In this document: positions 3,103-24,180 of the stretch, piece by piece
How the letters are laid out: the number at the start of each line of letters is the position of its first letter
Position numbering within the stretch: the first letter of the stretch is position 1
Source of the DNA: Escherichia coli
GTDB taxonomy: Bacteria > Pseudomonadota > Gammaproteobacteria > Enterobacterales > Enterobacteriaceae
Assembly (NCBI RefSeq): GCF_016903815.1
Contig: NZ_CP069975.1
Direction: 5' to 3' (one strand)
Length of the DNA: 41,445 nt
Program-made: the position numbers and the translations under genes
The notes under the pieces: model-generated
Told to the model about the DNA's origin: nothing
Seen by the model: the letters and a program-made list of their open reading frames with translations, nothing else
The model's database searches: none

Positions 3103-3147
3103 ATTGTAAGATAAGTAACTTGTCACCCCGCCCTGCGGACGGGGTGA
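3103..3147 (-). promoter_or_regulatory. Candidate late promoter (palindromic element + 6 bp + TACAAT) overlapping a GC hairpin, upstream of the R-S genes
   Basis: On the gene strand GTGACAAGTTAC (3126-3115), a 6-bp spacer, then TACAAT (3108-3103). Hairpin caccccg-N9-cggggtg at 3124-3147 immediately after the upstream gene stop. Same architecture recurs at 11666-11689, 23004-23028 and, more weakly, 30030-30054. Confidence 0.45.
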
Positions 3148-3150
3148 TTG

Positions 3151-3990
3151 TCACGCATCGCTATCCAACAGCAAATCATCTGCGCGGGTGCGATCAAACG
3201 TAGGCGTTGCTTTCACAATAGTGCCGCCCGGCGTTGCAGTGATCGGGGCGTTAATCGACGTAACTTCAGTAAGCGAAGTTGTATCCGAAGTTTCAAACCA
3301 GCAGAATGCTTTTTCGGTATCAGAAATCTCATTCAAAGTGATCATGTCGGCCTGTTCATTTACAACAACCGACAAATAGAGCGTAAGCCCATCAAACACT
3401 ATATGCAGTGGCAGTAGAGGCTTTACGAACTGATTAAACTTTCTGAGAATTTCTTCTGTAATTGCGGACTGATCTATCGTTCCAGTAATACCCATTGTCC
3501 GGGCCAGGTCGTTTATGGGAATACTGATCATTCCTCTGGAAGTCAGAAACATCTCGCCGAATGTGCCGCCGGTGGTTTCCAGTGTGCTTTCTGGAATCAG
3601 GACCGTGCCATAGGGATGACGTTCAAAGTCCACCGGAGCATATATTGGATCCCATAAAACCGATATACCGTTAAATTCGCGATAAATTGTCTGGTTTATA
3701 GGGCGTTCAGTACCCTTAAAATGGATCTCATCAAACCGCTGTTGTAACAACATCGGAACGGAAGATGAATTCGACGTTCTGATAGTAAAAAACTGGCCAA
3801 GTTCATTTGTCCTAGTCTCCAGATCCTCCTTGCTCATGGAGAAAATAGACTTCCGGTTGGTAATTCGCTCCAACCATGGGTCAACAAAGGTGTCCATCAT
3901 TGACTGAACCAAATCAGCCAATGATTTATAAAGTAATGACTTTTGCTTAGCTGATGTAAGCCGGTTATTAAACCAGGAACGCTGCATCAC
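3151..3990 (-). CDS. Baseplate/tail structural protein (P1 gene 16-like by position)
   Basis: 279-aa ORF; stop overlaps the downstream hairpin; start overlaps the upstream gene stop (ATGA-type coupling at 3987-3990). Confidence 0.6.
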   Translation of the reverse strand: MMQRSWFNNRLTSAKQKSLLYKSLADLVQSMMDTFVDPWLERITNRKSIFSMSKEDLETRTNELGQFFTIRTSNSSSVPMLLQQRFDEIHFKGTERPINQTIYREFNGISVLWDPIYAPVDFERHPYGTVLIPESTLETTGGTFGEMFLTSRGMISIPINDLARTMGITGTIDQSAITEEILRKFNQFVKPLLPLHIVFDGLTLYLSVVVNEQADMITLNEISDTEKAFCWFETSDTTSLTEVTSINAPITATPGGTIVKATPTFDRTRADDLLLDSDA

Positions 3991-5776: not shown

Positions 5777-8700
5777 TCAACTCTCGCGTAGTCATTCATC
5801 AACGGATCATCAATTGACAGTGGCACCGTGCGCATAACGCCCGGTTGAGGCGTGCTGACCTTTACGACAGTTCCCTGGCCTTTCGCCGAGTCTTTAGTGT
5901 GCTCTTCAATCCTGGCAAGCAATGAGGTCATCTGCGCAAACAGCCGCTTCGTTTCACCATCAAGTGAAACGGTATTATCAGCCAACTGCATTGTCGGCTT
6001 GGCACCGGAGCCGCCAAGGTCACTAATAACCTGTCCGTCTATCTGCATACGACCGGTTGGTTGCTGCAAATCGTTGGCGGCAGTCGTCACCTGGGACGTG
6101 GAGGCTGGTTCAGGCGCATTATTTTTCCGCATCCCCGGCGAGTTGCGGAGTTTATCAAATAGTCCATCAATCCCCATTTGTGCGCCGAGTTGGTCAAAGT
6201 AACTTGAGTTGCTGGCCACCGGACGCGCCTCTTCAACTGGCATCGGAGTATCAACATACACATTGCCAGCTGCTGTTGCGGTCCCCTTCCCTCGTGCACG
6301 TTCTTCGAGCGTTCCCTGAACGACTTCCCGACGCATACCCCGGCCATTCATGAATTTGTTGACCAGATCGTTAACGCCAACAGCATTGCCAATTTTGTCT
6401 ACCAGACCGCCTTTCTCAAACGGGCTATCACCAGGGGTAAACGCCAGGCCAGTAGACTGATCGATAACAGCGTTATCAGGCAGTGGTCCCCTCACTCCAT
6501 ATTGCGCCCCACCCTGTGCTCCTGCTCCAGGTGTATAGATTTCACCACCTAAATAGCGAGCACGATGAGTATTGACCTTGATCGCGTACTCACGGTTTTC
6601 TTTCGATAAGTCACCTGTGCCTTTTTTCCACTTATTGATAGTGCCAAACCCAGCATTATATGCAGTGATGGCCTCGTTTAAGTCTCCATTGGCTTGCTTC
6701 AGATATTTGCTCATGAGAAGAGCCGCAGCTTCTGCCGATTTCACAGGATCAAACGATTCACCTTCAGCTAAGCCAGTCTCTTCACGAGCAATCCCCGTGA
6801 ACTGAAACATCCCCAGAGCACCGGTTTGGGATTTTGCATACGGATTACCACCAGATTCAGTTGCAGCAATCGCGTAAAGAGTGCCTTCTGGAAGACCGTA
6901 TTTATTCTCTAGTTCGGCAAAATACGGAGCCAACTTATCGAGATTTGCCTTACCTTCAGCGCCAAGACTTCCGACTTTTACATCCAAGTTGCCATTGTTG
7001 TAGGTATCCGCAGCTTTCTGAATGTCATTCCTGGTGCCAGTGGTATTAAGCGACGATGATGACGAGCTATTTTGACCAATAGCTTTATCAATTTTCTGCA
7101 ACGCGCTATTGCCCGTTTCTACGGCATTTGCATTGATAATCTGATTAGCAGTTTCTTTAACTGTTTTATTGCTATCTTTCGCCGTATCTAGGGATGCATT
7201 TACAACACGAGTGACAATATTAGCCTTTTTAGGGGTATATTCAGTCTTAGGAGCATTGTCCTCCTGACTTTCTTTAGCTGGTGTTTTTAATTCAGGTGTA
7301 ACCTCTTTCGCATCCGCTTTGTTGACTAGCTTTGATGCAACCCAGGCCACAGGGGTGCTCTGAACAGCGGCATCTGCAACCTCACCTGAAAGCTCTTTTG
7401 CGGCACTCCATAGATTACTGCCAGCTTCTTTAATGTATTTCCCTGGGTTCTTAATGAAATCAATTGCACTATCAATTGCATCACTGAAAACCTGTTTCAG
7501 GTTATCGACAGTAAAGAAGTTTTTGATGGCGTCTAATTTTTCGTTCAGGTTCTTTGTTGTGTCACTGAACCATGCTGAAATAGCATCACCAATCTTTGCA
7601 GTATAATCACTAAATGTCGTGGATATAGTATCACCAAGGTTAGAAATATATGTTTCTAAATTGGTAATCCCACTATCAATGGCCTGGGCAATACTTTCCG
7701 TCGAAAATGATTGCAACATATTGCCGATATCCTCAAATCCAAGTGATTTGAGAACGCCGCCAATGGCACTGCTAATACCAGATACCAGTCCTCCCATATC
7801 GAGAACGTTAGCCAGTGTATAAGCCGCTTTTTGCTGAAAAGATGGATCTTCCCCATCCTTAAGCCCAAAGGTCCGACGTTGTGCTTCTGTATCATTCCAA
7901 CCGGTTACCGCATCATAGATACCTCCAGCCACCGTGCCGACTAGCGGAATTGCGCGTAAAGCCCCCTTTGCAAGAGCCTTAACACCTAGTTTCCCCAATC
8001 CCTTAGTTGCAAGTTTTCCGGCACCGCGAGTAGCCAATTCGCCAGCTTCTTTGGCAGCAGCTTTTTTCCCACCAAAGCCCAATAAGCTTGCAACTTTTTT
8101 TATACCTAAAGCGCCTAGTGCCATCGAGCCAACTTTCTTTAGTACCCCACGGCCAAAAATAAGGGAAGCAATACCACCGGCCCCCTTCCCTAACAGGCTA
8201 AATAGTTTGGACAGCAAGCCGCCCTTCTTTTTCCCGGTGTTTTTGGCTATCTGATCAAGGGCGCTGAGAATCTTGTCATTGCCCTCTTTAATTTCGCTGG
8301 TCTGCTCCTGAAGTTCCTGAACCGTCCGTTTTTGGGTGTTAACCTGAACGACATCGGCACTATTTTGCGATTTACGCCTAAAAAAACCTTTTCTACGGCT
8401 GTTATCGTCATTGCCACGAATCACATCGGCAATAGACTTTCTGGCACCATTAAGCGATCCACCAACTTCTTTTGATATCCCGCCAAGCTCCTTCCCTGCT
8501 GCCCACAATGGACCAGCAACGGCATAACCTAACGCATCGACGGCACGAGTCTCTGAAGGGTTACCTATGCCTTCAGCTACTTTTGACAGTTTTTTTAATA
8601 AACCTGATTCAGCATTTAGACGCTCATCATCCTCTTTGCGCCTGGCCTTTTCAGCACGTTCAGCACGGACATCTTCCGCTGCGGCCTTACTCCCTGACTT

Positions 8701-11067: not shown

Positions 11068-11689
<622 letters not shown>

Positions 11690-11692
11690 AGG

Positions 11693-16864: not shown

Positions 16865-17461
16865 CTATGCCGCATTTCCAATTATGGATTCAGCGACCAG
16901 AACAACCCCATGCTTACTTCGATCTGGGTGTTCACTCCATATCTCGGATTCAGGAATACTTACCCCGTCATAGCAAACACGTTCGCCGTCAAACGGGTAA
17001 TACTGAGCGGCATCGGTGTCAAGGATAAACACTTTTAGCTCGGAAGAGCGACGGGCGATGTGTTGCCAAAGAGCTTTTCCACCTTCGTATTGCTCATTAT
17101 CACTGAGCAAAACAACACCAGCTTTTGAGGCTACGGTTTCGTAAACAAAAGTAGCTAAACCGACATCCCGGACGGTTCCATCAACCACGATACCTTCAAT
17201 CTGGGCAACATCGCTATCCTCCCAGAACTTCCTTACCAGTACGCCTTCAAGCTGCGGGCGACGTTGAAGTTCAAGAGTAGCGACAACCTTATGGCGCATA
17301 TCACCATCGATAACAGAAGGCGCAGCCTCTATTACAGCTGCAAATGGGGTTTTGGAATCCCATATAACCTGGTAAAGCACACCCTGGATGGTAACTCCGT
17401 CCAGGATCGAAAATCGACGAGCGACAGTACCCGGGGAGTACGACATTGGAATCACAGCCAT
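16865..17461 (-). CDS. Hypothetical protein (P1 PmgF-like by position)
   Basis: ORF track 16865..17497; start placed at ATG 17461 with strong RBS AAGGGGGA. Confidence 0.5.
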   Translation of the reverse strand: MAVIPMSYSPGTVARRFSILDGVTIQGVLYQVIWDSKTPFAAVIEAAPSVIDGDMRHKVVATLELQRRPQLEGVLVRKFWEDSDVAQIEGIVVDGTVRDVGLATFVYETVASKAGVVLLSDNEQYEGGKALWQHIARRSSELKVFILDTDAAQYYPFDGERVCYDGVSIPESEIWSEHPDRSKHGVVLVAESIIGNAA

Positions 17462-17590
17462 TTTAGAGTCCCCCTTTAACAGTACAGGCACAAACATCTA
17501 CCTCAATAATTGTAGTTTATTAGAACATTAATAATCTAACATAAAACTCAAGACAATGTTATCGATGCATTCTTATATAAAATAGTTATA

Positions 17591-17616
17591 AAAAAAGCTC
17601 CCGAAGGAGCTTTAAA
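17591..17616 (-). terminator. Rho-independent terminator ending the head/sheath operon
   Basis: On the minus strand AAGCTCC-TTCG-GGAGCTT followed by TTTTTTT; lies after the stop of the 17633..18142 gene. Confidence 0.7.
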
Positions 17617-17632
17617 ATACAAGGGATGACTC

Positions 17633-18142
17633 TTAATCCCACTCAATCCAGTTGTAGACGATACGAAGTGACGGGCGCACAGCGGCAGTCACATCTTCGG
17701 TACTAAAGTCGATTGCATCACTGTAGATTTTGCAGTCCAACATTTCAATTGTTGTAGCAGCTTTTGTCACAGCGTTAACCCCGGAAGATTTGGATTCAGG
17801 GGTAGCAGCCATCGTGATATCAACATAGTCCTTCGCCGCAATGCGATCCTTGATGAACTGAAGAATATCGCCTTCGATAGTCTCCACGCACTGGACCTGG
17901 ATTTCCCCAGAGTTTCGAATTGGTCCGTGCTGGTTGAACTTCACACCATTCGGACCATAGTCCTCCACATCCTCGCGTGTCATTTCAGGGATTTGCGACG
18001 TGCGAACCAGTACGCTGATATCTTCATGGCCTGCAAAAGTGAGCTGGAATTCAGAAGATACCAGTCGTTCGCCTTTGGCCGCGTTGGCAGTATAGCGGCC
18101 CTTAATAAATTTACGGTTTCCCTTAGTGTTATTGTGCCCCAT
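17633..18142 (-). CDS. Tail/baseplate structural protein (P1 BplB-like by position)
   Basis: 169-aa ORF, last gene of the minus-strand operon starting at the 23004-23028 promoter. Confidence 0.5.
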   Translation of the reverse strand: MGHNNTKGNRKFIKGRYTANAAKGERLVSSEFQLTFAGHEDISVLVRTSQIPEMTREDVEDYGPNGVKFNQHGPIRNSGEIQVQCVETIEGDILQFIKDRIAAKDYVDITMAATPESKSSGVNAVTKAATTIEMLDCKIYSDAIDFSTEDVTAAVRPSLRIVYNWIEWD

Positions 18143-18153
18143 ATAAAATCCTT

Positions 18154-18735
18154 TTACTGGAACGCCCGAACAATATCGGAGCTGTTATATATCGAAGAAC
18201 CGGTCAACTGGAGGTTGACGGTGTTTTTCAGGAAATATCCATTACTGTCCCTTGGCGCATCGAGATCAAAACTTAAGTCCTGGATGGCGACATCGGTGAT
18301 GTTGATCCGGCGACCAATGTTTAGCGTCACGCGCTCCGGGATTCGACCACCAACATTGGCCGCTTTTAGTTCCGGGCTAATCATGGCTGTCAACGCGGCG
18401 ATAGCGCCTGAAACTTCAATGAATGGATTGTTCAAAGCAATGAAAGTTACAGGCAGCGTGAACGTCGGCGGAGTCCCCCCTTCCCAAACCATTAAGCTAT
18501 TCCAACGGGCAACCGACGTTGTTTCAGTACCTACTTGCACAAAACCACCCAGAGCACCAGAAACAGATCCCATGGACATACCGGTAAACGGCGCTTCCCA
18601 ATTCTGGGCCATGTTCATTGCCGCTCCCTGGCTGATATATCCGGTAACCTGGTACTGAGAGTTCGTTAAAGTAACTTTCAGAAATGGCGATACACCGTCA
18701 GCCTGGCTGTAAACCCCATAAGGTATAGGTGCCAT
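18154..18735 (-). CDS. Structural/morphogenesis protein (P1 PmgG-like by position)
   Basis: 193-aa ORF in the structural operon. Confidence 0.5.
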   Translation of the reverse strand: MAPIPYGVYSQADGVSPFLKVTLTNSQYQVTGYISQGAAMNMAQNWEAPFTGMSMGSVSGALGGFVQVGTETTSVARWNSLMVWEGGTPPTFTLPVTFIALNNPFIEVSGAIAALTAMISPELKAANVGGRIPERVTLNIGRRINITDVAIQDLSFDLDAPRDSNGYFLKNTVNLQLTGSSIYNSSDIVRAFQ

Positions 18736-18770
18736 TCAAGTTAAAGGCCGGAGTTCTCCGGCCTCCTCCT

Positions 18771-19586
18771 TTAGCCAAGGCGCTTACGGCGCAGTTTCAT
18801 TGACTTTTTGCGGGCAAGTTTTGCCGCGCCGGTCTGGGCTTTTCGACGCGCTTTTTTCAGCGCCGATTTTTGAGCCGCAGTCAGACGTTTTTTACGCAGG
18901 CGTTTACGGATGAGTTTGATCTCACCGTTACGAACAACCTTCTTAAATGCTTCAGTCAGCATTTCATCAGAAGTGCCAGCAACAACAAACGCCGCTTCCA
19001 GTTCGTCGCGGTCGTCGCTATCTAAACCAGCGATAGAGGCACCAACATCAGCAGCAGCGTCGTCGTCTTCATCGTCAGCCAGTGCTTCGATCAGGTCATC
19101 ATCTACACCGCATGCTGCGAGGAAGTCAGCAACATTTGCCCATGCTTCGTTATAGGCATCGTCCTGTTCTTCTGTAACTTCGGAGTCGTCGTCATCAGAG
19201 ATACCAGCGATAGCCTGAACGAAACCATCAAGGGAGTCGAAAGTCAGATCACCGCTATCAGCCCAGGAGAAAACGGCGTCGGCCGCATCACTCAACGCAT
19301 TCTGCATAGCACTTCGATTTGCAGCTTCCAGAATCATCTGGTGCGCCTGTTCGACGGTCCATTCTTTACCGTCTTTCCCTTCCAGGATTTGCTCTGGAGC
19401 CGGGGCAGATGGAACGTTATCGTTAGTCTGTGCCGCCGGTTCCGGATTATTATTAATAACCGGATCTGTTGGCGGTTCGGCGCTTGCTCGGGCAGACTCC
19501 ATCAGCTGCACAGGATCAGAGTTCAAAGCGAAACGGGACAGTCCATTCCCCAAAAATGCCCCGGATTGAAAAAAGTTTTTGCTCAT
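18771..19586 (-). CDS. Structural protein with acidic core and highly basic C-terminal tail (P1 gene 21-like by position)
   Basis: 271-aa ORF. Central D/E-rich run (DDDDSEVTEEQDD...ALADDEDDDAAAD). C-terminus KLIRKRLRKKRLTAAQKSALKKARRKAQTGAAKLARKKSMKLRRKRLG. Confidence 0.6.
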   Translation of the reverse strand: MSKNFFQSGAFLGNGLSRFALNSDPVQLMESARASAEPPTDPVINNNPEPAAQTNDNVPSAPAPEQILEGKDGKEWTVEQAHQMILEAANRSAMQNALSDAADAVFSWADSGDLTFDSLDGFVQAIAGISDDDDSEVTEEQDDAYNEAWANVADFLAACGVDDDLIEALADDEDDDAAADVGASIAGLDSDDRDELEAAFVVAGTSDEMLTEAFKKVVRNGEIKLIRKRLRKKRLTAAQKSALKKARRKAQTGAAKLARKKSMKLRRKRLG

Positions 19587-19595
19587 TGTATTCCC

Positions 19596-21185
19596 TTACT
19601 TAATAAGCAGCGGTACGCCCTGGATACGACGGGCTACGCCAGTCGGGCAGCAGGCCCAGACTACTTCCCATTTATCGAATTCCGCCTGCGTAACTTTCAG
19701 CACATACGGTTCTGTACCGTCAGCATCGGGATCACGAGGAGCCACCAGAGCGCCGGAGGCGACAAAGCGATCTAAAAGTTTGGTCATCCCTTTAGTCAGG
19801 CCAGCCGCAGTAATACCGTCCGGGCTATGCTTCATCTGTCGGGCTAACTGGACAAAGAAACGACTGATTGCATTCATCAGGGATGGGACGTGCTGGAAGT
19901 GCAGATAGTTATCCTGCGTGCAGCAAGTTAAAGCATCGTCGATGATCATCTGGCCAGAGGTGCCAACAGATACTTTATTGAGACGGCCCTTGACCATTGC
20001 TTCTTCGTCCGGGGTATCTTCCGGATACAGCGGTTGAATTGACGCACGAGCAATGACGGCACGTTCTTCACCAGCCGGTGAGTAATGCCAACCGCCGACA
20101 TCAGAGTTTTTCTTGACGCCACGAGCTTTCGCCGCATACGCCGCGCCAGACAGACCGAAGACCACACGGGATTGGGTCCATTTGTCTTTGCAGGAGAACG
20201 GGTAGTGATAGACAGAACAGCTTACATAATCGGTACCAAGTAAACCGGTACCCTCAACAGCTGTTAGTGCTTCTGCGTACCTTAATGTCGGTTTGACATC
20301 AAAGAAGCCATCAATCAGGCGATCTGCACAGATTTTACCTAATGCGGTGATAGCCGCATTGTCATAGCAGCCCAGGCCAAGAACAGCGGTGTACATGTAC
20401 GGCGCATTATTCAGCACTTTAACCGCACGCAGGTAAGCAGCGGTTGAGATTTTCGACTGATCGCCATTGGTACCGCCAGTGAATGCCACCGATTTTTTAT
20501 TTGTTACTTTCGCTGTAGAAATCAGCTCTTCATTAACAACCGCACGCAGATATTTAGAACGGGCTTCCAGAGCCGTAGGCAGATAACACAAGCGGCCCAT
20601 GTCATCTTTCGCTTCTTCCGCCAAAGACACAGTGTGTGTCTCCAGGGTCGTTACCACACCGAGCGAAGTCGTCTGGGTCAGTTTTAAGAGGAAGCGTTCA
20701 TTACCCGCGCTGTCCGCTGTTGCCGTTTCGATGGTTAACTCACGGGTAGGTGAAATACACGGATCACCATCATCAACGTAGATAGCAAAGGCTTCGCCGC
20801 TATCAAGTTCAATTTCAGAACCGTATGGCAACGCACTGTTAGCCGGTTCGCCTGATTCATCGAACATAATAATCGGGAACTTCGCATCATCCGGAACAGC
20901 ACGGACAACATAACCAGACGTTTGCTGAATAGCTTCGTACACATGGCGAATTGGTTCAAACTGTGAGCCGGAAGACGGCTTCAGCGGTTCGCCAAGAACA
21001 TCTTCGTAATTGGACTCAGTAACCGCAAGAACAGTAAACGGCTTGCCACGCGCAAATACGCCAATACCAGCCCACAAGCTGCTATTTAATGCAACACCGG
21101 TAGATAACGTCGCATCGGCATTGATCGGGCTAACCGCGACGCCGGATGCATTACCTAATGACTGTTGAATTGAATATTGAGACAT
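19596..21185 (-). CDS. Tail sheath-like protein (P1 gene 22-like by size and position)
   Basis: 529-aa ORF directly downstream of the major head gene. Function inferred from size and synteny only. Confidence 0.5.
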   Translation of the reverse strand: MSQYSIQQSLGNASGVAVSPINADATLSTGVALNSSLWAGIGVFARGKPFTVLAVTESNYEDVLGEPLKPSSGSQFEPIRHVYEAIQQTSGYVVRAVPDDAKFPIIMFDESGEPANSALPYGSEIELDSGEAFAIYVDDGDPCISPTRELTIETATADSAGNERFLLKLTQTTSLGVVTTLETHTVSLAEEAKDDMGRLCYLPTALEARSKYLRAVVNEELISTAKVTNKKSVAFTGGTNGDQSKISTAAYLRAVKVLNNAPYMYTAVLGLGCYDNAAITALGKICADRLIDGFFDVKPTLRYAEALTAVEGTGLLGTDYVSCSVYHYPFSCKDKWTQSRVVFGLSGAAYAAKARGVKKNSDVGGWHYSPAGEERAVIARASIQPLYPEDTPDEEAMVKGRLNKVSVGTSGQMIIDDALTCCTQDNYLHFQHVPSLMNAISRFFVQLARQMKHSPDGITAAGLTKGMTKLLDRFVASGALVAPRDPDADGTEPYVLKVTQAEFDKWEVVWACCPTGVARRIQGVPLLIK

Positions 21186-21245
21186 AACTTTCCCTGTTAT
21201 GCGCCCCGCGCGGGGGCGCTATGTTAAACGGAGAGCTTCCCCTGA

Positions 21246-22952
21246 TTACTCAGAGTCACCAGCATCAATCGTGTTACCGGTCAGGAAGTTAATTCCGCCA
21301 TTTTTTGCCATAGTCAGAGTTACACGGGTGAAGTAGTCAGCACCGTTGCGTGGATGCATATCGTTGATAGCCGAACCCCACAGAGTGGTTCGGTTGACTA
21401 GTGCCGGGGTGGTCGGATGCTGGAATGGGACAGCCGGGACTGCATCACCAGTTACGAAGCCCGCTTTGCCCGGATTTTCATCACGGACGTAGCACAGCAC
21501 ATCCATTGGGCTGAACTGGATACCGTCGGCGGTCAGGTTCGTACAAATACCTTCTGGTACTTCGAACACTTTGACGTTGCCGAACAGAGTGCCAATGTAG
21601 TGGACGTATGGGGTCTGGATGTAATCTTCTGCTGGCTGGAAGAAATCCTTCGGCAATTGTTTGAAGAAAGATGCCGCATCAGCACCGGCATACATCCCCA
21701 TCGCACCAGAAGATTTAACACGCTCAATAATACCGCGATATACCGTCTGGAATTTGCCTCGAATGATGGTTGCCCACACATCAAAGGTCTGGTTAGCTGG
21801 TAGTGCAATATCAAAGGAGTCGGTCGCAAGAGTTCGCCAAATCATGATACGAAGACGAAGCATATCTTGCTCATGGGACAGGTATTCCTTCAGGGTGCGG
21901 AACTGTAGGGAGCCAAGATCCAGACCAAATTCACGCTGTGCTTCATACGCCGCCTGTACCGTGTGCTCAGCCGCGATGACGAACTGGTTTGGGAACAGGG
22001 TGTAACTCTTCATTTCGTGGTTGATAAGTGGGATCAGCTCAGGAGCTGCTTCTATATTGATCTCCGCCTCAATGGCGATCTCAGTGCCTTTATCCGGCGC
22101 TTTGGAGAACGACAGGGCAATCTGACCAACGTTGTAATTCAAAGAGCAAGTAACAGTGATTTGTTCGCCTGCTTTGTTATTGAATGTGTGAAGCAGAGTA
22201 CCGGAGCCGTTATCAACAACAGACTTAATACGGTTAACGTAGATGTTTGTGCGACCTTTGCGAATCGGGACATTCTGACCTTCGACATCTTCCATCTTGA
22301 AGGTTGCAGTTTTGCTGGTGCCGTCGGAGCTTGCAACCAGCACATAGCGGCGGCGCAACTGGCTGTACACGCCAACGGATTGCATGTCCAGAACATCACC
22401 AATAGCATAGGAGCCAAAAGAAGAACCCGCTACGTTAAAGATTTCATAGATTTCGGACTTGTCACGCGTAACCGGAATGAATGTACACGCATCAGCGGTA
22501 GCTGCCCCCAACTGAACAGGCAGGATCATCGCCAAGAATAAAGGCAGACGCATAACCCCGTCAGAAACACTCATCATCTCTGCCGCGACTGATTCCAGCA
22601 TCGCTTTATTGGTGGCGTCCATGCTATTGCGGGTGGACTCAATCAGGCAGTTTTCCAGCGTCTGATGGCAGGAGGCCAGAATTTCCGGACGTGGCATAGA
22701 TTTATGTGTTGCGGCGTAGTCAGCCAGTGCACTTGCCCACGCTGTAGCGATTTGAGCGGTGGCATTATCAGAGATACCCGCAAAAATTGGGTCTTTACGT
22801 GCAGCTTCAAGGATAGATGCGGCACGCGCGGCATCATCTTTAATGAATTGGTTATCAGTACCGAACTGCGCAGTGCTTGCCCAGCCAAGCACAGCTTTAG
22901 AGCGTTTTGCGATATCTGCAATACGATTCTGGTATTCGCGTAAGTTACTCAA
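21246..22952 (-). CDS. Major head (capsid) protein (P1 gene 23-like by size and position)
   Basis: ORF track 21246..22973 starts at TTG; I place the start at in-frame TTG 22952 preceded by AAGGAAGAG (no in-frame ATG nearby). First gene after the candidate late promoter 23004-23028. Confidence 0.55.
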   Translation of the reverse strand: MSNLREYQNRIADIAKRSKAVLGWASTAQFGTDNQFIKDDAARAASILEAARKDPIFAGISDNATAQIATAWASALADYAATHKSMPRPEILASCHQTLENCLIESTRNSMDATNKAMLESVAAEMMSVSDGVMRLPLFLAMILPVQLGAATADACTFIPVTRDKSEIYEIFNVAGSSFGSYAIGDVLDMQSVGVYSQLRRRYVLVASSDGTSKTATFKMEDVEGQNVPIRKGRTNIYVNRIKSVVDNGSGTLLHTFNNKAGEQITVTCSLNYNVGQIALSFSKAPDKGTEIAIEAEINIEAAPELIPLINHEMKSYTLFPNQFVIAAEHTVQAAYEAQREFGLDLGSLQFRTLKEYLSHEQDMLRLRIMIWRTLATDSFDIALPANQTFDVWATIIRGKFQTVYRGIIERVKSSGAMGMYAGADAASFFKQLPKDFFQPAEDYIQTPYVHYIGTLFGNVKVFEVPEGICTNLTADGIQFSPMDVLCYVRDENPGKAGFVTGDAVPAVPFQHPTTPALVNRTTLWGSAINDMHPRNGADYFTRVTLTMAKNGGINFLTGNTIDAGDSE

Positions 22953-23003
22953 TTTACTCTTCCTTAAACACAAGGCACTTGTGTGAATCCCTTTTCGGAA
23001 GAG

Positions 23004-23028
23004 ATTTTATTGAAAGTCACTTGTTGAC
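23004..23028 (-). promoter_or_regulatory. Candidate late promoter of the head/sheath operon
   Basis: Gene strand: GTCAACAAGTGAC (23028-23016), 6 bp, TAAAAT (23009-23004); about 50 nt upstream of the gene 23 start. Confidence 0.45.
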
Positions 23029-23084
23029 TTTCTCGTGACAAGCAATTTTTTTATTTTTTTTCGGGAGTAGGGGAGGAAGGTAAA

Positions 23085-23178
23085 ATCCAAGGTGAAATCG
23101 TGGCGATTTCACCTTGAAATTTTAGAGTGATTTACTTTAAAAACAGTAGTTTAATAGTGAAATTTGAATGGCGAAAGT
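23085..23178. promoter_or_regulatory. parS: parS-like partition site (ParB heptamer/hexamer boxes flanking an AT-rich, IHF-like core)
   Basis: GTGAAATCGTGGCGATTTCAC (23091-23111) and TAGTGAAATTTGAATGGCGAAAG (23155-23177) carry ATTTCAC-type heptamers and TCGCCA hexamers (as TGGCGA), separated by AT-rich DNA; immediately downstream of the parB stop. Confidence 0.65.
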
Positions 23179-24180
23179 TTAAGGCTTCGGCTTTTTATCG
23201 AGGCTCTTTCTAAGGATATGCCCAATCATCCTGTCGAGTTCTTCCTGTAGCTCTTTTGAAAGTCGATTAAACTCATAAGAAAATGCACGGCCTTTCACGC
23301 GCTTCCTTGCAAAGCGATCCTTGTCCTCAAATTTCCATAATTCAGTAACTACGGACTTATCTTTAGAACCTTTATCCGTGAGTAGTGAGGCTTCCTTTGT
23401 TATCAAGCGCAGGATTTTATTTTTAACTTCATCTTCGGCCATTTCTTCAATGGATAAGATGTCGTTTATTTCCGGGGATATGTTTTGAATAAGCTGATCA
23501 AACTCTAAATTCTTGTTCCCCATTTCGTCGCCAACAGCACAAAGCGTTTTGTAGTCCGAAAAGGTTAATTCCGACTGCACAGGGAAAAGGGCGACTAATT
23601 CTTCCGGAGCACTCGCTGCCTGGAGAGCACGCGTGACCTTCGCCTGAGACAGCCCTTCTTTGGCTGCAATATCCTTCTGACTCATCCCATCATTTTTCAT
23701 TCGCATCAAACGCAGACCTATTTCTCGAATGCTGTGCTGCAATGCTGTCTGAACGTCTTTCGCTAAATTTTGCGCTTCCTGAACGCTGATCTCCTGGTCC
23801 GTGACTAAAACCCGCAACCCTACGTTCTCTAAGATGGCAGAAGCTCGACGCCGGGAACCATCCAAAATTTCAATTTTCCCTGTAGCCCGTCTAACACCTA
23901 TTGCAGGGTAAAATTGCTGATGCTTAATAGTGCTTCGGATACTTTTTAATGATTTTGGCGTAAGAGATGCCTGGTCACGCCCGTTGTTATGCTGATCAAC
24001 AAAGGTATCGCTTTCTACCTGGTTCGGAGGTATTACCTCTTCAATAAATGTGGCCTGGCGACCAGTTGATAACTTGAATACCTGCTCGACTCGATCGCCA
24101 GAGGCTGAAGAACTATCAAATCCGCTTAATATTGAAGGATTAAGGGTTCGCCCAATTGTTGGTCTGTTTTTCTTTGACAT
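23179..24180 (-). CDS. parB: Partition protein ParB (centromere-binding)
   Basis: 333-aa ORF downstream of parA with a 16-nt gap; followed by the parS-like site. Confidence 0.85.
   Translation of the reverse strand: MSKKNRPTIGRTLNPSILSGFDSSSASGDRVEQVFKLSTGRQATFIEEVIPPNQVESDTFVDQHNNGRDQASLTPKSLKSIRSTIKHQQFYPAIGVRRATGKIEILDGSRRRASAILENVGLRVLVTDQEISVQEAQNLAKDVQTALQHSIREIGLRLMRMKNDGMSQKDIAAKEGLSQAKVTRALQAASAPEELVALFPVQSELTFSDYKTLCAVGDEMGNKNLEFDQLIQNISPEINDILSIEEMAEDEVKNKILRLITKEASLLTDKGSKDKSVVTELWKFEDKDRFARKRVKGRAFSYEFNRLSKELQEELDRMIGHILRKSLDKKPKP

Follow-up and report, generated by a model that had tools for sequence, protein, structure and literature searches.

The window, a stretch of 41,445 nt from Escherichia coli contig NZ_CP069975.1, is a P1-like phage-plasmid whose structural genes lie on the minus strand. 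Over positions 19500-23200 the window shares 99.8% identity with Escherichia phage vB_EcoM-673R5 and 94.8% with phage P1. The P1 record names its matching genes 23 (major capsid protein), 22 (sheath), 21, pmgG and bplB, and all of them are on what corresponds to the window's minus strand (Table 1). The first-pass annotation, made from the sequence of the window, had named a major head gene and a sheath-like gene on either side of the hairpin described here, and both identities proved right on the P1 and PHROGs matches. A Pfam search with all operon proteins gave no match.

The operon starts at the late promoter LP23, which is predicted in the P1 record upstream of gene 23 and just downstream of parS, and it ends at a canonical intrinsic terminator. 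Between LP23 and this terminator (17613-17594) the late-promoter motif AAGTGACTT-N4-TANNNT has no match on the minus strand, and the P1 annotation, though it predicts many promoters, has none in the stretch from gene 23 to the 3' part of bplB. An internal late promoter ahead of gene 22 would turn the hairpin into the end of a separate operon; a search for one by its motif found no match. Co-transcription of 23-22-21-pmgG-bplB from LP23 can be soundly inferred from this arrangement, in agreement with the first-pass annotation, which had treated the two genes beside the hairpin as co-transcribed. Since four genes lie downstream of the hairpin without a promoter, read-through at this position must dominate.

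Table 1. Features of the P1-type structural operon, in coordinates of the window.
Feature	Position	Strand	Remarks
Late promoter LP23	23004..23022	-	AAGTGACTT-N4-TAAAAT, exact motif match; operon start; annotated LP23 in P1
Gene 23, major capsid protein	21246..22952	-	P1 match and PHROGs phrog_1014; annotated start is TTG at 22952
Intercistronic spacer, gene 23/gene 22	21186..21245	-	exactly 60 nt
Hairpin	21201..21219	-	mRNA: GCGCCCC (21219-21213), loop CGCGC (21212-21208), GGGGCGC (21207-21201)
Shine-Dalgarno-like AGGGA of gene 22	21191..21195	-	5 nt 3' of hairpin, 5 nt 5' of ATG
Gene 22, tail sheath	19596..21185	-	P1 match and PHROGs phrog_1036, tail sheath, 1.8e-229
Gene 21	18771..19586	-	9 nt downstream of gene 22; no hairpin in between
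Second (sister) hairpin, 35-nt gene 21/pmgG gap	18745..18764	-	AGGCCGGA-GAAC-UCCGGCCU, -17.4 kcal/mol
pmgG	18154..18735	-	P1 match
bplB	17633..18142	-	11 nt downstream of pmgG; final gene of transcription unit
Canonical intrinsic terminator, operon end	17594..17613	-	AAAGCUCC-UUCG-GGAGCUUU then UUUUAUAA; just after bplB; flagged by terminator scan

The hairpin in the capsid-sheath spacer

The spacer is bounded by the gene 23 stop codon (21246-21248) and the gene 22 ATG (21185-21183). The plus strand at 21201-21219 reads GCGCCCCGCGCGGGGGCGC, and the mRNA across the junction is laid out as UAA-N26-GCGCCCC-CGCGC-GGGGCGC-AUAACAGGGAAAGUU-AUG, with 26 nt between the gene 23 stop and the hairpin and 15 nt between the hairpin and the AUG of gene 22. 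In the ViennaRNA fold (-16.0 kcal/mol) seven G-C pairs close a loop of 5 nt, a structure that accounts for 85% of the ensemble and has a z-score of -2.77 against dinucleotide shuffles, the z-score of the 85-nt context being only -1.57. The GC-rich hairpin without a U-tract that the first-pass annotation had placed at 21201-21219 in a 60-bp gap was thus confirmed in its sequence, its coordinates and its fold. Both strands of the window's own sequence fold about equally (sense -14.5 kcal/mol, antisense -15.8 kcal/mol), the sense fold not being the more stable, and for this reason the strand of the hairpin is assigned by homology to its relatives.

A U-tract was taken to be about four or more U within the 8 nt directly 3' of the stem. 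While the hairpin has the kind of stem seen in intrinsic terminators (G/C-rich, about 5-14 bp, short loop), its 3' flank on the mRNA strand, AUAACAGG, contains 1 U in 8 nt, against 4 in 8 for the corresponding flank on the plus strand, UAUGUUAA. Neither strand has a U-tract after the stem, and a consensus terminator scan did not flag the hairpin. The operon-end terminator has a U-tract, and the internal hairpins of the window are without one. E. coli RNA polymerase terminates poorly without a proximal U-tract, and as the U-tract is missing, very inefficient intrinsic termination would be expected at the P1-type hairpin.

Apart from the hairpin, the 41 kb window contains no perfect all-G/C stem of 7 bp or more; from shuffles 0.04 would be expected, and any such stem arose in 3 of 100 shuffles. 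The pattern GCGCCCCN5GGGGCGC, with up to two mismatches allowed, likewise occurs once against 0.05 expected. The hairpin ranks 11th among the local 30-nt folds of the minus strand, and a fold as good as that of the gap is reached by only 2.5% of 60-nt windows. When the G/C-rich gap itself was shuffled, 118 of 1000 shuffles reached a comparable folding energy, which is not significant. The single-sequence statistics for the hairpin are moderate, and it is the comparative data that carry, decisively, the case for a selected hairpin.

An Rfam scan of 17000-24000 at E<=1 gave no match at 21186-21245, and in the P1 GenBank record (NC_005856) the corresponding 60 nt, at 57,007-57,066, are free of annotated features. 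Terminators are missing from that record elsewhere too, since an obvious one after ant goes unannotated and so does any after bplB; the missing annotation of the gap is therefore uninformative.

Conservation in close and distant relatives

Close relatives comprised 84 P1-type loci with a 60-nt spacer, falling into nine haplotypes. Not one of the 14 stem positions varied among them, as against three of the five loop positions, together with a 1-nt loop deletion, and five of the 41 positions in the rest of the gap (Fisher's test for stem versus loop, p=0.010). The loop was found as CGCGC, CGUGC, UGCUC or UGCGC, with one haplotype carrying the 4-nt loop GUGC. This distribution of variants shows purifying selection on the stem. 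The tail AUAACAGG is common to the window and all 84 loci.

Distant relatives were collected from sheath-gene neighbourhoods in phage, plasmid, IMG/VR and GTDB collections and represent about 20 diverged P1/D6-type lineages. Sheath homologues were found by tblastn in 902 plasmid records, the Vibrio and Aeromonas plasmid relatives (sheath matches) being left out of the comparison, and a scan of genome contigs gave nine loci, none of them outside Enterobacterales (one contig is labelled as an uncultured Roseburia MAG). A strong hairpin stands before the sheath gene in every lineage compared, at sheath identities down to about 37%. In JK004 the stem is the same and the loop is UUCG (GCGCCCC-UUCG-GGGGCGC), and GCGCCC-type stems are present in two Pantoea lineages, Enterobacteriaceae bacterium B14, Serratia, Rosenbergiella and the metagenomic lineages L101, L102 and L152, the GCGCCC core persisting even in lineages with flanks that cannot be aligned. 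Leclercia and L101 have GGCGUCC/GGACGCC, a compensatory change from C-G to U-A. Stems that are unrelated in sequence occupy the same junction, at -14 to -22 kcal/mol, in Citrobacter (GCGGCAUCU/AGGUGCCGC), in the L095/L104 type (CCCCCUUAACG/CGUUAAGGGGG), in E. kobei (CCCCGGC/GCCGGGG) and in D6-type phages.

Two paths of change pass through a wobble pair, one in the D6 clade with G·U (L119), G-C (L122) and A-U (L137), and the other with C-G (L129), U·G (L132) and U-A (L130). When 32 distinct variants of the hairpin were folded on either strand, 21 G·U pairs appeared in sense and none in antisense, and the C(UNCG)G tetraloops of five lineages are found in the sense strand only. A 15-sequence alignment of GCGCCC-type hairpins gave a covariation score of 0.187 against a shuffled mean of 0.099, with none of 500 shuffles reaching the score, though this support is modest; few of the core pairs vary, and the D6 sequence is shifted by one column in the alignment. 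Taken together, the comparison of lineages shows that the selected object is an RNA hairpin on the mRNA strand, of which the structure rather than the sequence is conserved. Since the hairpin is kept in all distant relatives, it can be regarded as functional.

The position of the hairpin relative to the sheath gene was also compared. A purine-rich Shine-Dalgarno sequence lies 3' of the hairpin in all lineages, within a few nucleotides (2-8 nt in most of them), and the distance between the hairpin's 3' edge and the sheath AUG is 13-20 nt for most lineages and 32-36 nt for the D6 type. The distance from the preceding stop codon to the hairpin ranges from 1 to 26 nt, the D6-type hairpin lying only about 6 nt past that stop.

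The tails of these hairpins differ from lineage to lineage. P1, JK004, Citrobacter, Leclercia, E. kobei, L152 and B14 have 0-1 U in 8 nt. A U-tract as defined above is absent from the hairpin of the window and occurs only in some relatives (L102, L120, L142, L096 and L084), and tails with 4-5 U follow the hairpins of L102/L103 (GGGGCGC-UUUUUAAGG, with UUUUU in L102), L120 (UUUUCUGA), L142, Rosenbergiella (GUUUUAGG) and Pantoea L084 (UUUAUUAA). Judged by these tails, the hairpin family ranges from clearly non-terminating members to predicted canonical terminators, and the P1 type stands at the non-terminating end.

Operon-wide spacers and RNA levels

Comparison of the operon's gaps across 13 lineages gave an alternating picture. 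The capsid-to-sheath gap (40-60 nt, and longer in D6 and Rosenbergiella through the insertion of extra coding sequence) always contains a hairpin, and so does the gene 21-to-pmgG gap (35-70 nt) where it could be sampled (11 of 11 lineages), with folds of -16 to -31 kcal/mol for the whole spacer. A hairpin is absent from the sheath-to-gene 21 gap (3-12 nt), with D6 and B14 as exceptions, and from the pmgG-to-bplB gap (7-15 nt), with the Citrobacter/Leclercia clade as the exception.

The sister hairpin before pmgG takes the form of a canonical terminator, with U6, in the Citrobacter plasmid. In the P1/JK004 clade it sits between the sole Shine-Dalgarno-like sequence and the pmgG AUG: the AGGAGG lies 5' of the hairpin and the AUG 9 nt 3' of it, giving a linear spacing of 29 nt, and the Shine-Dalgarno sequence is partly paired in the minimum-energy fold. 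On this layout the two hairpins are putative punctuation elements that split the operon into three blocks, namely 23, 22+21 and pmgG+bplB, and the genes inside each block, 3-15 nt apart, are probably translationally coupled.

Published gene-level RNA-seq of P1vir at 30 min (PMC8201110, Table S1) was used to assess RNA levels on the two sides of the hairpin, its values being log2 fold-changes against a phage-free control and not per-base or absolute coverage, so that they cannot show 3' ends. In wild type and dksA hosts, respectively, the log2 fold-changes were 12.07 and 11.75 for gene 23, 11.45 and 11.69 for gene 22, 11.12 and 11.89 for gene 21, 10.62 and 11.36 for pmgG, and 10.86 and 11.33 for bplB (PMC8201110). 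The values for genes 23 and 22 are comparable because the two genes are nearly equal in length, and they differ by 0.62 log2 (about 1.5-fold) in the wild type and by 0.06 (about 1.04-fold) in the dksA host. Gene 23 has the highest log fold-change of the virion structural (head and tail) genes in the wild type at 30 min, and the distal genes of the operon display no monotonic fall once gene length is considered. A 20-min delta-hfq data set (bioRxiv 10.64898/2025.12.28.696737) has near-zero signal for these genes and is too sparse. A literature search for transcript mapping of the P1 late operon returned gene-level RNA-seq only, and the ONT-cappable-seq literature, searched for terminators after capsid genes, gave nothing useful.

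A large RNA step at the hairpin is thus unlikely in P1 and a modest one possible, and the effect of the hairpin on RNA levels looks small. The first-pass annotation had suggested that the hairpin sets the head-to-sheath expression ratio, to which a step of about 1.5-fold in the wild type and 1.04-fold in the dksA host lends at best weak support; as the values are fold-changes against a phage-free control, they do not refute the suggestion either.

Candidate roles of the hairpin

Our preferred reading, which we hold tentatively and at a probability of about 0.4, is that the hairpin acts as an mRNA-decay barrier of the malE-malF, puf or menBCE kind, with little or no true termination or at most very leaky attenuation, and favours the capsid segment. 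RNA polymerase would read through the hairpin, the U-tract being absent, and an endonuclease would cut the polycistronic RNA 3' of the stem, where it is single-stranded and rich in A and U. PNPase and RNase II, exonucleases that degrade RNA from 3' to 5', would then stall at the G/C stem, and the mRNA carrying gene 23 only would outlive the distal part of the transcript. Of the features of such a barrier, the locus has a stable stem-loop, conserved in structure on the mRNA strand, in the spacer 3' of a gene needed in excess, within one transcription unit. We infer both the decay mechanism and an effect on the 23:22 ratio, the latter being modest, at most about 1.5-fold by RNA-seq. The first-pass annotation had offered a partial terminator or an RNA-stability element as alternatives. 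The conserved sense-strand structure directly after the capsid gene bears out the general idea, whereas the P1 type does not have the U-tract, and a translational role is equally compatible with the data.

Several observations speak against the decay barrier, namely the small RNA-seq step with no monotonic fall in the distal genes, the antisense fold of the window's own sequence, which is no less stable than the sense fold, the U-tracts of some lineages (L102, L120), where the ancestral role could have been termination, and the 13-20 nt between hairpin and AUG, which fit a role linked to the ribosome-binding site equally well. In the latter case, the main rival reading and a serious one, though we hold it less likely than the barrier, the hairpin would be a translational insulator that presents the ribosome-binding site of gene 22, blocking scanning or re-initiation by ribosomes leaving the capsid gene as well as upstream pairing with the Shine-Dalgarno sequence, so that sheath translation would be set by its own ribosome-binding site alone and RNA would be uniform across the junction. 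This would account for the tight spacing of the hairpin to the Shine-Dalgarno sequence and AUG in most lineages while its distance from the stop codon varies, for the fact that the hairpin-free gaps are the very short ones typical of coupled pairs, and for the nearly equal RNA-seq levels of genes 23 and 22; the sister hairpin of the P1/JK004 clade, lying between a Shine-Dalgarno-like sequence and the pmgG AUG, also resembles that of T4 genes 25 and 38 (PMC3014915). It accords poorly with the D6-type hairpin, which is far from the sheath AUG and close to the preceding stop, and with the U-tract lineages, which point to a transcriptional or 3'-end role; moreover, a 60-nt spacer alone would already weaken re-initiation. 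Those lineages, with 4-5 U after the homologous hairpin, would suit a leaky intrinsic terminator at which some RNA polymerases stop after the capsid gene, lowering tail-gene transcription directly. The G/C-rich stems of 7-8 bp with tetraloops are terminator-like, the Citrobacter hairpin before pmgG is a canonical terminator, and phages classically place a terminator behind the gene for the major capsid protein, as T7 does with Tphi. For P1 itself such a terminator is unlikely, given a tail with 1 U in 8 nt in the window and its 84 relatives, rejection by the terminator scan, an RNA-seq step of at most 1.5-fold and the poor termination of E. coli RNA polymerase without a proximal U-tract. The decay barrier, the insulator and the leaky terminator are not mutually exclusive.

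A function in the plus strand or in the DNA itself, be it an antisense or bidirectional terminator against plus-strand read-through from the convergent kilA-repL operon or a palindromic site for protein binding or recombination, is very improbable. The balance of G·U pairs and the UNCG loops, which read correctly in the sense strand only, oppose it, as do the unrelated stems at the same position, which argue against a sequence-specific protein site, the occurrence of just one copy in the window and the absence of plus-strand genes or promoters nearby. These outweigh the richer U content of the plus-strand tail UAUGUUAA, the A-rich upstream flanks of several lineages (AAAA in B14, AAAAA in D6, and L101), the slightly more stable antisense fold of the P1 type and the persistence of the GCGCCC core where flanks cannot be aligned. 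A chance palindrome with no function might be argued from the shuffles of the gap and the z-score of the 85-nt context given above, but with 0.04 such stems expected per window and a hairpin at this junction in about 20 lineages, accompanied by compensatory changes, the comparative data can be said to have effectively refuted this reading.

A broader proposal, and a rather doubtful one, is that the two hairpins form a deeply conserved punctuation of the P1/D6 structural operon in which each serves two purposes, as a 3' exonuclease stop for the preceding block and as a 5' cap, ribosome-binding-site organiser or block to ribosome scanning for the next, the second hairpin of the P1 clade even being needed to bring a distal Shine-Dalgarno sequence to the pmgG start. 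If this dual-insulator reading were true, protein stoichiometry would be set mainly post-transcriptionally, and RNA coverage would change little. P1, a workhorse among phages, is the founding member of a very large phage-plasmid group, and its capsid, sheath and minor tail or baseplate proteins are made in very different amounts from single promoters, of which the P1 annotation gives no account. A concrete, mutable 19-nt element and its sister, with a structure maintained across the P1/D6 group, would offer a genetic handle on post-transcriptional control of virion stoichiometry, and the hairpin could help to tune expression in P1-based vectors.

Relation to known elements

No new mechanism is revealed here, as protective or attenuating intercistronic hairpins are well known. 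While this kind of element is familiar, the P1 hairpin, its sister and their conservation across P1/D6 phage-plasmids appear to be undescribed in the accessible literature, the map of the P1 genome paper lying outside the comparison. In T7 the terminator Tphi follows gene 10, the major capsid gene. The P1 arrangement is alike in that a G/C-rich hairpin comes directly after the major capsid gene and is followed by tail genes, some of the relatives' hairpins having U-tracts; in contrast to Tphi, the P1-type hairpin lacks a U-tract on both strands and was not picked up by the consensus scan, and read-through must be the rule.

In E. coli, 3' protective intercistronic structures, such as those of malEFG and the consecutive hairpins of menBCE, reshape operon stoichiometry (PMC5927463). 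With malE-malF, Rhodobacter puf and menBCE (PMC5927463) the P1 element shares a conserved, stable stem-loop in the spacer after the most-needed gene and no requirement for a U-tract, and the menBCE-type decay terminators (PMC5927463) are alike also in that several consecutive hairpins can grade one operon. The malE-malF element, however, is a multi-copy REP, whereas that of P1 is a single-copy 19-nt hairpin with a small RNA step. The cip-cel operon of Clostridium cellulolyticum (PMC4423207) is similar in having intergenic stem-loops in an operon for one large assembly whose subunits are required in unequal amounts; its organism and nucleases differ, and it exemplifies selective RNA processing and stabilisation that sets the stoichiometry of a complex. 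As in the RNase E-generated 5' protective structures of papBA (PMC5927463), the P1 hairpin, with 15 nt between it and the AUG of gene 22, could cap and protect the 22-21 segment after a cut in A/U-rich sequence 5' of it; there, by contrast, the structure lies inside the upstream coding region and the downstream gene is stabilised, while in P1 the upstream capsid gene is expected in excess. The split ribosome-binding sites of T4 genes 38 and 25, in which a hairpin is needed for initiation (PMC3014915), would be a likeness for the sister hairpin at 18745-18764 only.

A split ribosome-binding site was rejected for the capsid-sheath hairpin, as the AGGGA (21195-21191) is 3' of the stem. A REP element was rejected on the one copy found in the window with two mismatches allowed and on the unrelated stems of relatives, and an RNase III processing site of the T7 type, with about 20 bp or more of double-stranded RNA, was rejected as the stem is 7 bp and the 85-nt fold contains no longer helix. 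The hairpin is also no stimulator of programmed -1 frameshifting, for which a slippery heptamer 4-9 nt upstream and an extended -1 reading frame would be expected, since it lies 26 nt past the stop codon and the coding sequence ends in ...GAC TCT GAG TAA without a slippery site. Cassettes for -1 frameshifting are present at the end of the capsid gene in the D6 and Rosenbergiella relatives.

Shine-Dalgarno sequence and hairpin ahead of pmgG

The pmgG start codon, which was checked via N-terminal conservation, lies 9 nt from the 8-bp hairpin that occupies the intercistronic gap after gene 21, and no Shine-Dalgarno (SD) sequence was present within these 9 nt (UUAACUUGA). The sole SD-like sequence of the gap, AGGAGG, is instead located 5' of the hairpin, 29 nt from the AUG. 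An identical arrangement was found in JK004, with the SD-like sequence again 5' of the hairpin, while other lineages carry an ordinary SD located 3' of the hairpin. This order of SD and hairpin is reminiscent of the split ribosome-binding sites of T4 genes 25 and 38 (PMC3014915). However, AGGAGG is partly paired in the minimum-energy fold.

Coordinates of features in the window and at loci of compared relatives
Feature	Location	Strand	Position or detail
Gene 21-pmgG gap	18736-18770	minus	equivalent layout at L082 (relative's locus) 6414-6448
Hairpin UCACCCCGUCC-GCA-GGGCGGGGUGA	3122-3151	minus	gene 16/R gap, 78 nt long
Late-promoter-like motif AAGTTACTTATCTTACAAT	3103-3121		adjoins 3122-3151 hairpin
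35-nt hairpin CUCGUAGAAUC...GAUUCUACGAG	within 11635-11692	minus	gap upstream of pmgC; -18 kcal/mol
Weak late-promoter-like match AAATGACTACTCGTAGAAT	11684-11666		overlapped by hairpin upstream of pmgC
Region downstream of bplB	16865-17632		unlike P1
Capsid gene start (TTG)	22950-22952	minus	preceded by AAGGAAGAG
Palindrome, 13-15 bp	23086-23118		upstream of LP23
Major capsid gene 3' end, phage D6	L083 3501-3614
Capsid gene 3' end, Rosenbergiella metrosideri contig	L096 3219-3440
Sheath-gene 21 gap, Enterobacteriaceae bacterium B14	L088 5133-5403

Other junctions of the late region

The gene 16/R gap is a further late-gene junction with a hairpin devoid of a U-tract, and at about -20 to -21 kcal/mol this is the strongest local hairpin of the window. 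The palindrome upstream of the late promoter LP23 was flagged as terminator-like. At this place the P1 record carries the centromere parS, with binding sites for ParB and IHF, and the palindrome is probably not primarily a terminator. At the start that matches the P1 annotation, the major capsid gene begins with TTG, an unusual choice for a gene which should rank among the most highly expressed late genes. Downstream of bplB, a canonical terminator is followed by a 210-aa ORF (phrog_7522, unknown function) at the place where P1 has pmgF.

Capsid and sheath gene ends in relatives

The major capsid gene of phage D6 ends in ...GAA AAA AAG TGA, placing the slippery heptamer A_AAA_AAG in frame immediately before the stop. 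The annotated orf50 of D6 (product VSVSPTSLDVDEGETI...) overlaps this stop in the -1 frame, and the capsid end is a candidate for a -1 programmed frameshift that would add ~35 aa to the capsid protein; orf49, the next ORF, looks like a putative Ig-like domain. In the Rosenbergiella metrosideri contig the capsid gene ends in G_GGA_AAG TGA, an 11-bp hairpin (GUCGGUAGACG-CGCAAU-CGUCUACCGAU) begins 4 nt past the gene end, and an ORF of ~70 aa, rich in Ala, Lys, Gln and Asp, occupies the -1 frame. Together, heptamer, hairpin and ORF form a textbook-looking, predicted -1 frameshift cassette. GGGAAAG is the heptamer that lambda G-T uses.

In Enterobacteriaceae bacterium B14, the sheath-gene 21 gap measures 271 nt as against the usual ~10 nt, and within it the unit GGAAAA is repeated in tandem (AAGGAAAAGGAAAAGG...).
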